This document shows positions 148-14,300 of a stretch of DNA of 20,711 nucleotides, in pieces. Location of the stretch: the UHGV virus genome UHGV-0163620. One strand, given 5' to 3'. The DNA is from a virus. Position 1 is the stretch's first letter; every line of letters starts with the position of its first letter. The translations under genes were made by a program, and so were the position numbers. Below the pieces are notes generated by a model, which did not search any database, was not told where the DNA came from, and saw nothing but the letters and a program-made list of their open reading frames with translations.

Positions 148-1008
148 TTAGTTATGTAACTGCTTCCGGAATACAACAGCTGACGCACTGCAACGCAAAA
201 TGCGTTTGATTGTGTCAACTGAGGCAACAGATTTGCACTGTTCAATATCATCAACGATGACCACGTCCAGATCCGGTATTGAGCGGGTATGCAATGTTTT
301 TGCACTAATAACATCACAGCCATTCAGTGGTCGAATATCTGCATCTTCAGGCACTACCAGAAGCACACGTTTTCCCGGTGCAGAAAAGCCAGCAGCAAGA
401 GTGCGTGACAATAAAGTCATTCCGCTGCGTGGCTTCATACAAATTTCAGAAATATGATTCTTTTCGTCCAAATGATGCTGGACATCATTTTTATCATCAC
501 TCAACAACTCTGCTGTTAATACAATCCCTGCTGTCTCAGATTTCCAGGAAATGCTGATATCCTGATCATCTGCATCAACATCATATTCCATCGAGTAAGG
601 ACTAAAGCTACGTCCAACGAACGCATCATTTACCAGTACACGCCCACCCTGTCTGACCTGAAAGTCAACGCGCCCTGAAAGCTGATTTGCTGTTACAAGC
701 AATGCCTTTTTTCTTTTTGTTTTATTGCTCATTGCCACCAACTGTTCAGCCATCTCTCTTGTCACACTACCAGAAACTCTTTCTTGAATTTTCACAGAAA
801 ATTTTCTGGATGTAGTAGCATCGACATTAAAAAATCTGGATGTCATCAGGCAGTTATTAACAATTGGCATCAGCTCACTTACGATTGTAAAAAATTCCCG
901 GTAAAGCTCATTTTGCTTTTCAACACACAGCTTTCCACAATCGTCCAGCTTACGCTCAAGAGCACTTAACCTTTCCATTATTGAATTAATTTTTTGCAAC
1001 TCTTTCAT
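148..1008 (-). CDS. hypothetical protein, 287 aa, distal gene of the late transcription unit
   Basis: Long ORF; ATG at 1008 preceded by AGGAGG (rc of 1014-1019); ORF-track start at 1041 is a GTG inside the palindrome at 1033-1048; N-terminal coiled-coil-like segment; no family recognised. Confidence 0.6.
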   Translation of the reverse strand: MKELQKINSIMERLSALERKLDDCGKLCVEKQNELYREFFTIVSELMPIVNNCLMTSRFFNVDATTSRKFSVKIQERVSGSVTREMAEQLVAMSNKTKRKKALLVTANQLSGRVDFQVRQGGRVLVNDAFVGRSFSPYSMEYDVDADDQDISISWKSETAGIVLTAELLSDDKNDVQHHLDEKNHISEICMKPRSGMTLLSRTLAAGFSAPGKRVLLVVPEDADIRPLNGCDVISAKTLHTRSIPDLDVVIVDDIEQCKSVASVDTIKRILRCSASAVVFRKQLHN

Positions 1009-1032
1009 CAAAACCTCCTGACAAAGATACCG

Positions 1033-1048
1033 TGCGACCACGGTCGCA
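1033..1048. other. sopC-like 16-bp inverted repeat TGCGACCACGGTCGCA (candidate SopB/ParB centromere site), copy 1
   Basis: 7-bp inverted arms around a 2-bp centre; same 16-mer or its reverse complement at 4043, 9238 and 11681; differs from the F-plasmid sopC core TGGGACCACGGTCCCA (quoted from memory) at one position per arm. Confidence 0.6.
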
Positions 1049-1068
1049 AACGAGAAACAAAGAGATTT

Positions 1069-1380
1069 TTATGCTACAGAGGAACAAGCTGGCGGGTAAT
1101 TCAGCGTAGTGAATACCGGCATCTCCATCTTGTATGCGTAATGATACTCAGCAGTTGCTCCAGCAGACGCTTTCCAGCCAGGAAGCATCAAAATAGCATC
1201 AGCACAACGAAGCATTGCAAAGCAAATATCCATGTATTCACGTTGTGTCAGACCATTAGGCAAAGTGGCTGGATTCAAGACAGAGTGACCATGTCGTGAC
1301 AAACGATCTGCCTCTTTATTAAAGGCGTCACGATTAAAGTTCTCATATCCCGTCATTGGCCCGGCAATATAAATTTTCAT
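1069..1380 (-). CDS. DUF4406 / nucleoside 2-deoxyribosyltransferase-like protein
   Basis: N-terminal MKIYIAGPMTG motif typical of the family; 103 aa; directly downstream of the spanin genes. Confidence 0.7.
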   Translation of the reverse strand: MKIYIAGPMTGYENFNRDAFNKEADRLSRHGHSVLNPATLPNGLTQREYMDICFAMLRCADAILMLPGWKASAGATAEYHYAYKMEMPVFTTLNYPPACSSVA

Positions 1381-1421: not shown

Positions 1422-1859
1422 TTAATTCAGGCATTGCGTCTTGATGTATTCCTGCAAGTAGTTAACCTGCGCAGTTATCCTGTCGATCCCACTTCGGAGA
1501 CGGTAATAATTGAGTTCAGCATCTGCTGTAAGTCTTGGGCTTTCTCCATTGCCCATGCCGCTGGCTCCGGTCGTTGACTTTGCACAGGTGGCGGCGACTT
1601 GCAGGCGCTTACGCCCAGCAGAAACATCAGCACGGAGGCTTTCGATAGTCGCGTTAGCATCAGCAAGCTCCTTTGTATATCTGGCATCGAGTTCCGCTAC
1701 GTCACGTTGACGCTTCTGCATATCAGCGATTGTGGATGTGGCTTTATCGCGCTGCTCTTTGTAGGCGATGGCGTTATCACGGTAATGATTAACAGCCCAC
1801 GACAGGCAGACGATGATGCAAATAACCAGAGCGGAGATAATCGCGGTTACCCTGCTCAT
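1422..1859 (-). CDS. Rz: i-spanin Rz (lysis)
   Basis: Begins [26 protein letters not shown], near-identical to lambda Rz N-terminus; ATG at 1859 overlaps endolysin stop (ATGA); ORF-track start at 1871 is a GTG. Confidence 0.85.
1475..1660 (-). CDS. Rz1: o-spanin Rz1 lipoprotein, embedded in +1 frame within Rz
   Basis: Embedded ORF with signal peptide [20 protein letters not shown] (lipobox VSAC) and proline-rich mature part; start taken at internal Met. Confidence 0.7.
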
Positions 1860-2356
1860 TGTTGACCCCACAAACAGACTTCACGCTCAATCTCACGACG
1901 AGTCATCAGGCCTTTCCATTGCTTACCGCCAGCAGATATCCAGCGACGTAGCTGATCACATGCGCCTTTGATATCGCCCTGGTTTATTTTGCGAAGAAGC
2001 GTCGATGTTCTGAAATTACCAGCACCCACGTTGTAAACGAACGAGTAAAGAGCGCCGCGCGTTGTTTCCGGTATATCGACTTTGATGTACGGGTTAATTT
2101 GTCTGGCGACAGTGGCAAGGTCTTTATTCAGGAGAGCTTTGCATTCTGCTTCGGTATACGTTTTACCTAGCATGATGTCTTTTCCAGTGTGTCCATAACA
2201 TACAGTCCATACGCCAACAATATCTTTGTATGGTATGTAACTGACACCTTCCAGACCATCGTTACCACTTGGGCCAGTGATGAGCATAGACGCTATGGCA
2301 ATAGCCCCGCCACCAATAGCAGCTGTGACAGCTTTGCGTAATGATGACTGCATCAT
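1856..2356 (-). CDS. R: SAR endolysin (T4-lysozyme-like, glycoside hydrolase family 24), phage 21 R type
   Basis: N-terminal signal-anchor-release segment [16 protein letters not shown]; catalytic triad spacing E-9-D-6-T in [18 protein letters not shown]; 166 aa. Confidence 0.9.
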
Positions 2357-4042: not shown

Positions 4043-4058
4043 TGCGACCGTGGTCGCA
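4043..4058. other. sopC-like 16-bp inverted repeat TGCGACCGTGGTCGCA, copy 2 (extends to a 24-bp palindrome 4039-4062)
   Basis: Exact reverse complement of copy 1; lies about 21 bp upstream of the candidate late promoter -35. Confidence 0.6.
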
Positions 4059-9026: not shown

Positions 9027-9230
9027 CTATACCCAAATTTTCTGTTGATATGTTCTGGATGGTTTTGGCGTTCTTTCTGATTCAGGTAAATGAACATAAA
9101 CGCAATATCCATCACCTAAAAAATCAGAACGAACAACCAGAACTTTCTTACCACGCCGCCGATAAGTATCTGAAAGACGCTCTGCTTCATCATGCGTCAT
9201 CGGCCCCTGCTTAAATGGCGTTATTTTCAT
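9027..9230 (-). CDS. small hypothetical protein, 67 aa
   Basis: ATG at 9230; ORF-track start at 9254 is a GTG lying inside the palindrome at 9238-9253. Confidence 0.4.
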   Translation of the reverse strand: MKITPFKQGPMTHDEAERLSDTYRRRGKKVLVVRSDFLGDGYCVYVHLPESERTPKPSRTYQQKIWV

Positions 9231-9531
9231 TTTCTTGTGCGACCACGGTCGCACCCTCTCTGATTTCCAAGTAACGCTTAATCCAAAGATTTTCTATATG
9301 CTTATTACCTGGCTGATTTGATAAATACCAATCGGCAATTACAGACTGCTTATTACTATCTGGTCGTGTCCTGTAACCACAAGTTGGACACCAGATAACA
9401 TATTCATTTCTTACCCCCGAATACCTTAATTCTGGCTTCGACGGTTTCCTGAACATAACTTGTTTACAAAGACAGAATGGCACTTCCTGCCCGATGGCGT
9501 TTGATGATTTCACTGCGCTTCTCCGCCGCAT
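9211..9531 (-). CDS. zinc-ribbon protein, possibly Lar-like restriction alleviation family (tentative)
   Basis: CxC ... CxxC pattern (VPFCLCK ... WCPTCGYRTRP ... ADWYLSN) loosely resembling Lar/RalR small proteins as recalled from memory. Confidence 0.4.
   Translation of the reverse strand: MRRRSAVKSSNAIGQEVPFCLCKQVMFRKPSKPELRYSGVRNEYVIWCPTCGYRTRPDSNKQSVIADWYLSNQPGNKHIENLWIKRYLEIREGATVVAQENENNAI
9238..9253. other. sopC-like 16-bp inverted repeat TGCGACCACGGTCGCA, copy 3
   Basis: Identical to copy 1; 8 bp upstream of the ATG at 9230 and inside the 3' end of ORF 9211..9531. Confidence 0.6.
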
Positions 9532-11318: not shown

Positions 11319-14300
11319 ATGACATTAAACGATTTCTATGCGGATCGCTTTGGCAGCGATCCGTTCTCGCTAATTGAAGCAGCACGGGATGAACTAACCG
11401 AGCTGGCACAGATGGCTGGTATCAACTGGCCTGCCTGTTCCGACAACATCCAACTCAACCCTCGCGGGGGGGTTGAGCGTTACTCTTCATACAATAAAAC
11501 ATCTCCAGAAGCTCTCGAAAAGAGCCTGAAAGGACGCGTAGAAATTTACTCCAGGCTGGAACACAGCAAAGGGATTGATTACCCGTTCATTAACTTCGTC
11601 CATAAAGGCAGCGATGCTGGCTCATGGAGCGGTTTCTCCTTCCTGTTTTCTGAATATCGCCGTGAGCAACAACGGAATAATGCGACCGTGGTCGCACAAC
11701 CGGAAGAAGAACGGGAAAGAATAGAACGTCAGGCCGAAGCACGTCGTCGCCGTGAAGAACAAAAACGAATTAATGACCTGAAAAACAACCAAATGGACCA
11801 TGAACGTTTGCTGGGATGGCTGGCATTCCACAGCGCGTGGGAACATGCTCCGGCTGAAGACGGCTCATGGCCATATGCGATTAAAAAAGGTATTCGTGAC
11901 GTTTTTAGTTCATGTGATGTGCGTCGCGTGACCAGTCACGACAGTGCGAAATGGAGCCGGGGGTCAACCACATATATGGCTATCCCTCTGGCTCACCTGG
12001 ACGGTCGTTATGATGGTCGTATTGTGGGTTGGCAGCGAATCGACAAACAAGGTGGGAAATACCAGACCAGCGCAGTAACCAGCGGCGATTTCGTCGGTGC
12101 CTGCTTTGTTATCGGTGAGCTGAAAGGGGCGCAAAACATCGCTGTTACAGAAGGTTTTGCTACTGGTGCATCCATCTGGCTTGCCACGAAAAAAGATAAA
12201 CGCTTTGACGCTGTGGTTGTCGCTGTATCCGCTAACAACATGGTTCATGTTGTGGAACAACTGGTAAACATGTACCCGGCGGCAAAAATCACCTGCGCAC
12301 TGGATAATGACCGGAAATCTGCCACAGAAGGAAAAGGGAATACCGGCCTGCGGACTGGCTATGAAATCTTATCGAAATTCAACGATGTCCGCTGCGTCTA
12401 CCCAACTTTTGAAGACGATCCGCAAATGGAGTGCAGTGACTTCAACGACCTGCACAAACTACGTGGACTTCGTGAAACAGCACGTCAACTATTTGCAACA
12501 GCAAACCGCCTGAAAACCGGCACTGATTTGCTATCTCTGACGCTCAACCGCCTGAAGACAATTAAGCGGGATAACCGTCGTACTTTTGCCAAAGAGCTGC
12601 TGAGAGCGGTGGATATTGGCATGCTAACCTGTCCGGTTCCTAACAGTCCGTCAGATTTATTTAACATGTTCTGCATCGTTCTGCGTGAAATGGGACTGGA
12701 AAATATCTATCGTGCTACGGTAAAAGACCACATTGCCCGTCGCCTGAATAAAAAGTGCCGTATTGCCCAGGCTCCGCGCTCTTTCAGCGAACGCATAACT
12801 GATCCCAATAAACGACCTCAACATATCACCTATAAGCGTTTTGAAACTTCGGTAATGACCGATGATGTCCTGAAGTACGTGCAATCACTACAGGGGATAG
12901 TCATCGTCCGTGCTGGTATGGGTTCCGGCAAATCTACTGGATTGTTACGACCGTTAATGCATAGCTCAGAACGTGGTATCTCTGTTGCTCACCGTGTCTC
13001 CCTTATTGGTGGCCTGTGGGAAATGATGACAGAAGGAAAAGGTGTAAAAGCCGATATCCTGCACTATCAGGATCCTGGCTATCAGGAAATGGCTCCATAC
13101 GCCAGTAAACTGACCATCTGCATAAACTCGATTGTTAAAAACTGCTGGCAACCGTTGATGCGCCAGCACGACTATTTTGGCTTTGACGAGGCCACACAAG
13201 GGCTACGTGCCGTTCTTTCCGGTCGGGCTATGGAAAACCCGGTGGCTGTATTCAATACGCTAATTGACGCGCTGGCCAGAACGGAACAACACCCAATCAT
13301 GGTGGATGCTGATGCGAACGATCTGCTGGTTGACCTGGCTGAACTGGCTATGAAACGCCGTGAAGAACTAGGTTTACCGGCATGGCTGCAGATCCACGTA
13401 ATTGAATTACCTGTTGATGTTCGCAACCGCGAAACAGGTGAGCCAATCCGGGTTTTTTATACAGAAAAAGATCGCATCATGACCGAGGTGGTGAAAGCTG
13501 TATCGGATGGCGAAAAAATTATGTTGGCCACCGACAGCTCCACCTTTGCAGAAGATGTGACCGCCACCCTGAGAATGCATTTCCCTGGCAAGAAATTTCT
13601 GTGCGTAAACCAGAAAAGCAAACAGGATGAAGAAGTCGATGCCTTTACCAGCCAGCCAAAAGTAATGGTGATGAAATACGATGGACTGATCTACAGCCCG
13701 TCGATTTCCTCCGGGGTGTCATTTGAGAAAAAACATTTTGACCGTCATTTCGGCATGTTCTGCGGTGAAGTTGTGCCCAGCGACGCAGTGCAAATGCTAC
13801 GCCGCGACCGTACAGCAAAAGAATTTATTATTGGCTTTGATAAAGCCCGTGCAAAACGCGAGACTGATCCGCAAAAAATAGAACGTGCATTCGCCCAGGC
13901 ATTACTTGCTACCGCAGGCATGAACGGTGAACTGACGGATGTCATTTTCGATGGCGACCGTATATCAATGGGGGTAGCCAATACCGACTTTACCAGGATG
14001 AAAATTAAAGCAGCCGCAATTGAAGCGTCTGCGCGTAACGACTACGCCAGCAACATGATCTGCATCATGCACAGCGACGGTTATAAGGTATCACCATTAG
14101 CTACCGATTATGCCGCGAACGATTTTGGTAAAGAGCTGCGCAAAGAAGCGCGGGATATTGTGTGGGAACAGACGCTGGATCTGCACCTCAATACAGAGAC
14201 ACCAGAAGAATCAGAGCGTGAAGAACTACTAAAAAAACGTGCGCTAACGCTTGAAGAACAGGCAAAACTGGTCCGCTGGGATATTGAGAACGAACTGAAA

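Follow-up and report, generated by a model that had tools for sequence, protein, structure and literature searches.

Two accessory genes between the spanin genes and cos of an N15-like prophage: an orthologue of N15 gene 57 and a mosaic gene for a 286-residue protein

Genes and signals downstream of the spanin genes

The window (i.e. the whole stretch of 20,711 nucleotides that was analysed) represents the right arm of an N15-like prophage, reaching from the telomere, a palindrome of which lies at the right end, to a contig break. Its nearest relatives are the N15-like element PhiR46_1 and the Ravinvirus YDC107_1, and the protelomerase, the RepA-like protein and Q were all confirmed with Pfam. 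The two open reading frames, placed downstream of the spanins by the first-pass annotation, are confirmed; they are on the minus strand, downstream of the holin, lysozyme and Rz genes, the last of these with an embedded Rz1-type frame. The features relevant to this study are as follows:

148..1008, minus strand: gene for the 286-aa mosaic protein (phrog_2571), identified by its open reading frame, ribosome-binding site and PHROG match (E=1.2e-155)
163..453, minus strand: predicted minimal RecA-like alpha/beta domain (codons 186-282), with KPRSGMT at the P-loop position, an acidic end (PEDAD) to strand beta2 and a Walker B-like DVVIVDD
499..711, minus strand: predicted six-stranded beta-sandwich domain (codons 100-170; pLDDT about 80), homologous to ~74-aa proteins encoded after Rz
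1014..1019, minus strand: Shine-Dalgarno sequence AGGAGG, 5 nt before the ATG at 1008, read from the sequence
1032..1049, no strand: N15-type SopB-binding inverted repeat of 18 bp (an IR4-like centromere site, by sequence match), 24 bp upstream of the ATG and spanning the GTG at 1041
1069..1380, minus strand: DUF4406 gene, orthologue of N15 gene 57 (79% identity) and PY54 ORF64 (65%)
1422..1871, minus strand: Rz i-spanin gene (PF03245, E=8e-37), the upstream boundary of the variable slot
1475-1687: Rz1-type frame embedded in Rz, containing LLGVSAC, which by eye reads as a putative lipobox
1856-2356: lysozyme gene, upstream of both accessory genes
2353-2625: holin gene, upstream of both accessory genes

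Bases 1-56 of the window are A-rich and without counterpart in the relatives, homology to which starts at base 57. In these relatives the gene for the 286-aa protein is followed by a gene for a 149-aa membrane protein, by cos and by Nu1/terminase, all on the same strand. The earlier placement of the two genes at the "distal end of the late operon" is therefore an artefact, since the window stops at the contig break, and the slot that they occupy is the one between the spanin genes and cos/terminase, which is kept variable in N15-like and lambdoid phages.

The product of 1069-1380 was correctly assigned to DUF4406, as its score with PF14359 is 117.4 bits, the cut-off being 22 (E=3.7e-34), and its residues 1-90 cover positions 1-90 of the 91 in the profile. 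The match to PF05014 (Nuc_deoxyrib_tr) is weak and sub-threshold (20.7 versus 28.8 bits), and its PHROG, phrog_355, is annotated as nucleoside 2-deoxyribosyltransferase (NDT); by sequence the protein appears to be related to these enzymes at the superfamily level only. Residues Y4, D61 and E78 are invariant across this protein, N15 gp57 and PY54 ORF64, and a glutamate within SAGATAEYHY that is invariant in the three orthologues presumably corresponds to the NDT catalytic nucleophile. A PDB sequence search returned no significant solved relative (1t1j only, at E=0.18), a literature search found nothing on the function of DUF4406, and a preprint linking phage NDT (PF05014) to diaminopurine genomes is not applicable to this protein. 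N15 gp57 and PY54 ORF64 are encoded at the same place, directly after the spanin gene region of linear plasmid-prophages, and no substantive difference distinguishes N15 gp57 from the present protein, the chemistry of both being putative. There is nothing unusual about this gene, which is N15 gene 57 itself.

The second gene had been reported to encode 287 aa, a figure that counts a TTG at 1011; the protein comprises 286 aa from the ATG at 1008, and database homologues also start at the ATG (P0001, 286 aa; PGAP WP_021512245.1, 861 nt). The ribosome-binding site (minus strand, 5'-cAGGAGGttttgATG) is as strong as had been stated, and the same arrangement precedes the homologue in the lambdoid prophage L022. 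It had also been observed that the ORF-track starts of this gene and of 9027..9254 both fall in a palindrome, and indeed these GTG starts, at 1041 and 9254, lie in, or at the edge of, its extended form GTGCGACC..GGTCGCAC. The start at 1041 is spurious; the accompanying prediction that automated annotation would mis-start the gene failed, since GenBank PhiR46_1 and RefSeq/PGAP both take the ATG.

A crude consensus scan of the window and of PhiR46_1 detected no sigma-70-like site upstream on the strand of the 286-aa gene. Lambdoid late-region morons such as bor and lom are likewise dispensable, horizontally exchanged cargo at a variable late-region site; the present gene differs from these in lying on the late-gene strand and in that the promoter/terminator pair of a classical moron was not detected by the scan. 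RNA structure around the palindrome and the ribosome-binding site was unexceptional (z=-0.66), and the palindrome scored as merely a weak terminator-like hairpin. We infer that the gene would be expressed late, along with the genes for lysis and the head, by Q-antiterminated read-through.

SopB-binding palindrome, distribution and mobility

The palindrome TGCGACCACGGTCGCA is present in the window at 1033-1048, 4043-4058, 9238-9253 and 11681-11696, i.e. as four exact 16-mers versus none in shuffled sequences. These are several dispersed copies of the form expected of N15-type SopB sites (GTGCGACC-NN-GGTCGCAC, 16-18 bp). The published IR1 and IR4 SopB sites of N15 (PMC7205306) match the core of the palindrome, the core GTGCGACCACGGTCGCA being identical over 17/18 bp. 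What had been called sopC-like thus appears, judged by this match, to be a true N15-type site. N15 carries four dispersed right-arm copies (IR1-IR4) and the window likewise has four; however, IR4 of N15 follows gene 58 (Dcm methyltransferase), whereas the copy described here directly precedes the 286-aa gene. The product of this gene was also compared with N15 gp59, which has a similar position after IR4, and no homology was found. The sopAB genes of N15 are located on the other arm, beyond the span of the window.

In contrast to the N15 arrangement, the relatives of the window carry two or three copies of the palindrome around the cassette. Two of these copies have starts separated by 220 bp; the 203 bp between them are absent from the window, whose copy lost them in an IR-to-IR deletion. 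The palindrome is also kept before the 286-aa gene in chromosomal prophages, as a single copy in regions that show no other.

Homologues of the 286-aa protein are scarce, with one full-length cluster among 1.84 billion (1.84e9) representatives and 14 close homologues among 5.8e9 clusters. Of 5426 complete E. coli genomes, 35 (0.6%) possess the gene, 21 of the places being chromosomal and 14 on plasmids, and full-length copies are maintained in both kinds of replicon. Truncated copies are common: that of YDC107_1 encodes 198 aa, and some matches cover 41-68% of the query. The pairing of this gene with DUF4406 was examined by co-occurrence and does not hold, as each gene occurs without the other: the lambdoid prophages L015, L016 and L022 possess the 286-aa gene and lack DUF4406, while DUF4406 is widespread in phages and is found without the 286-aa gene in hundreds of them besides N15 and PY54.

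The 286-aa gene, with or without the neighbouring gene for the 149-aa membrane protein, is flanked by direct repeats of 170-300 bp. Sequence comparison indicates that it has moved by recombination between N15-like plasmids and chromosomal lambdoid prophages, taking the palindrome along. The family of the 149-aa protein, phrog_3054, comprises 179 phage records, and those without the 286-aa gene include Sf6 gp34, Vibrio phages and large (~145-kb) coliphage genomes; this wide independent distribution and the absence of the membrane-protein gene in L015 rule it out as an obligate partner.

Modular architecture of the 286-aa protein

Query residues 2-287 (numbered from the TTG at 1011) match positions 1-291 of the phrog_2571 profile, a family annotated as of unknown function. 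The helical N-terminus and alpha/beta C-terminus that had been suspected from the translation were reproduced in two AlphaFold models. In these models a helical hairpin, probably the driver of oligomerisation, occupies residues 1-55, and residues 56-99 form a low-confidence linker with a basic patch (KTKRKK). The middle of the first model, for which only close homologues were aligned, was poor (pLDDT about 25), while its beta domain was fixed once the 74-aa family had been added to the alignment.

The beta-sandwich relates the protein to small proteins of about 74 aa, which align to phrog_2571 positions 100-172 and are encoded directly after Rz in Stx/lambdoid prophages. Comparison with P0025 gave E=4.5e-5 library-wide and 2e-13 pairwise, and a profile of the domain (A3) retrieved about 50 small proteins with E-values from 1e-12 down to 1e-31. 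Representatives from E. coli O55:H7 CB9615 (P0133), from Salmonella (P0105) and from the end of the H-19B record share the homologous beta-sandwich at 28-48% identity; they are short members of phrog_2571 and occupy the same slot, immediately downstream of Rz. Relative to these, the 286-aa protein has two further parts of about 100 residues each, the hairpin with the basic linker at the N-terminus and the RecA-like domain at the C-terminus. Furthermore, while the genes of the ~74-aa homologues overlap the Rz stop codon, the 286-aa gene shows no such overlap and is separated from Rz by the DUF4406 gene and the SopB site. The mosaic origin of the protein is evident. Its N-terminal helices were also considered as a module shared with the C-terminus of long YdfR/DUF1327 proteins and with the lysis-cassette proteins P0025, P0085 and P0079, and this was rejected as unsupported (hhalign probability 0.2%); according to one report (PMC13232886) YdfR binds the N-terminal domain of RNase E, and the domain concerned is absent from the 286-aa protein.

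The C-terminal domain adopts a RecA-like alpha/beta core fold in the predicted structure, an assignment made from a model with pLDDT about 70 and a shallow alignment, and with borderline best scores (Foldseek E=4e-4; PDB HMM E=0.018). The best PDB sequence match is the viral packaging NTPase P4, whose Walker B motif DVLYVDS aligns with a conserved DVV[IV][IV]DD; the peptide DLDVVIVDD quoted by the first-pass annotation is present in the translation. The Walker A motif GxxxxGK[ST] is absent, every homologue having MKPRSGMT, in which Met replaces both the lysine and the first glycine, and the C-terminal domain alone matched no P-loop family in Pfam, even at E<=10. Compared with RecA-superfamily P-loop NTPases (cystovirus phi8 P4, the RecA/KaiC/DnaB cores, the TK1 core and the RecA-like domains of SF2 helicases), this domain is small, at only about 100 residues, and is without a lasso/zinc or second RecA domain. 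The PDB sequence matches include 3LA6 (Wzc), presumably the form with the engineered inactive Walker A K540M, and the loop sequence of the 286-aa protein would then equal that of this mutant. Because Met (M197 counted from the ATG at 1008, M198 from the TTG at 1011) occupies the position of the Walker A lysine, the modelled domain would most likely bind a partner rather than hydrolyse ATP, although, with Lys193 and Arg195 in its loop, it might still be able to bind nucleotides or even be catalytic. The gene is under purifying selection, dN/dS being 0.24-0.38 for the whole of it and 0.14-0.19 for the part encoding the RecA-like domain.

Possible roles of the 286-aa protein

On balance, we lean towards the explanation that the window carries two independent accessory genes in a variable slot, and that the 286-aa protein is a late-expressed, dispensable, binding-type mosaic protein. 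It would be a cytoplasmic protein of three modules, i.e. the hairpin, a beta-sandwich inherited from the post-Rz proteins of about 74 aa in Stx/lambdoid prophages, and a minimal RecA-type NTPase-like domain, for which a nucleotide or another oligomeric ATPase is a candidate partner. The process that such a protein modulates may be conflict, between phage and host or among phages, and not lysis, packaging or nucleoside chemistry; the argument for a conflict role consists of its genomic position and its dispensability.

An unlikely alternative is a two-gene defence or superinfection-exclusion cassette in which the 286-aa protein serves as the cytoplasmic sensor and the 149-aa protein, whose gene the contig break cuts off from the window, as the membrane effector. 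Both genes are accessory, they are adjacent, and they are jointly bracketed by direct repeats in N15-like plasmids and in one chromosomal prophage; additionally, the translation of the 149-aa protein reads by eye as having hydrophobic, membrane-spanning stretches, and one homologue carries the annotation of a TM-helix protein. However, no PADLOC family matched (the sole hit to the PADLOC 2.0 defence HMMs, DrmMII with E=0.022 and 11.6 bits, is noise), the consensus scan showed no promoter-like site for lysogenic expression, L015 and L016 have the 286-aa gene without the membrane-protein gene, and phrog_3054 is found in many genomes without the 286-aa gene.

We consider it rather improbable that the protein is an accessory of lysis or of cos-dependent packaging, e.g. 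a regulator acting with the spanins or the terminase. The gene is invariably found between Rz and cos/Nu1, in L015 about 95 bp separate its stop codon from a lambda-like cosN, the overlap of the small homologues with the Rz stop codon suggests translational coupling, and P4 is a packaging enzyme. Nevertheless, near-identical lysis and terminase modules function without this gene in N15 and most lambdoid phages, its rarity among complete E. coli genomes and its common truncation argue against such a role, no signal peptide or membrane segment is evident when the translation is read by eye, and the P4 match is borderline and confined to generic RecA-type motifs. The earlier statement that neither gene has an obvious lysis role is upheld, as searches of Pfam, PHROGs, NCBIfam, PADLOC, PDB sequences and folds gave no lysis or structural homology. 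In particular, clear homology to a known structural or lysis accessory protein, which would have told against the first-pass annotation, was sought and not found, and holins, endolysins, spanins, lysis regulators and virion proteins gave no match in Pfam, PHROGs, NCBIfam, PDB sequence or fold searches.

A more specific proposal, which we regard as quite improbable, is that the 286-aa protein is a late-made RecA-like decoy with a dead Walker A motif which, oligomerised by its hairpin, poisons or titrates an oligomeric ATPase of the host or of a rival; it would then represent a new anti-defence family, on a cassette that spreads between linear plasmid-prophages and integrated lambdoid prophages and is kept silent in the plasmid lysogen by the SopB-binding site with which it is tagged. 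Such a decoy might, for example, be aimed at a RecA-type motor or at a defence NTPase by which terminase or portal is sensed.

Cooperation of the two genes in nucleoside or nucleotide metabolism or in DNA modification, with DUF4406 providing an NDT-like step of glycosyl transfer or hydrolysis and the 286-aa protein a domain like that of thymidine kinase, is very improbable. The genes adjoin in N15-like plasmids, Foldseek gave probabilities of about 1.0 for several TK1 thymidine kinases, and N15 has a DNA cytosine methyltransferase gene in the slot that follows DUF4406. TK1 requires a C-terminal lasso/zinc domain, whereas the 286-aa protein has neither this domain nor the P-loop lysine and ends shortly after the last core strand (E274-281 of 286); PF00265 (thymidine kinase) was not matched in the Pfam search. 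Beyond the resemblance of its fold to the thymidine-kinase core, nothing supports a nucleoside-modifying role for this protein. Finally, the notion of a functionless, decaying fusion or pseudogene, to which the truncated or partial copies and the mosaic origin might point, is scarcely credible given the purifying selection, the strong and conserved ribosome-binding site and the maintenance of full-length copies in two kinds of replicon.

The present result is a refinement of annotation rather than the discovery of a function. Within the favoured explanation, the 286-aa gene provides a small, clean example of how new proteins are built in phage late regions: a 74-aa post-spanin protein, common in Shiga-toxin phages, was extended by a helical arm and an inactivated RecA-type domain, and the resulting gene moved between a linear plasmid-prophage and chromosomal prophages with a plasmid centromere site still attached. 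If the pseudo-ATPase does target a host or defence ATPase, it would represent a new anti-defence or regulatory family and would open a first route to the function of the post-Rz proteins of Stx phages.

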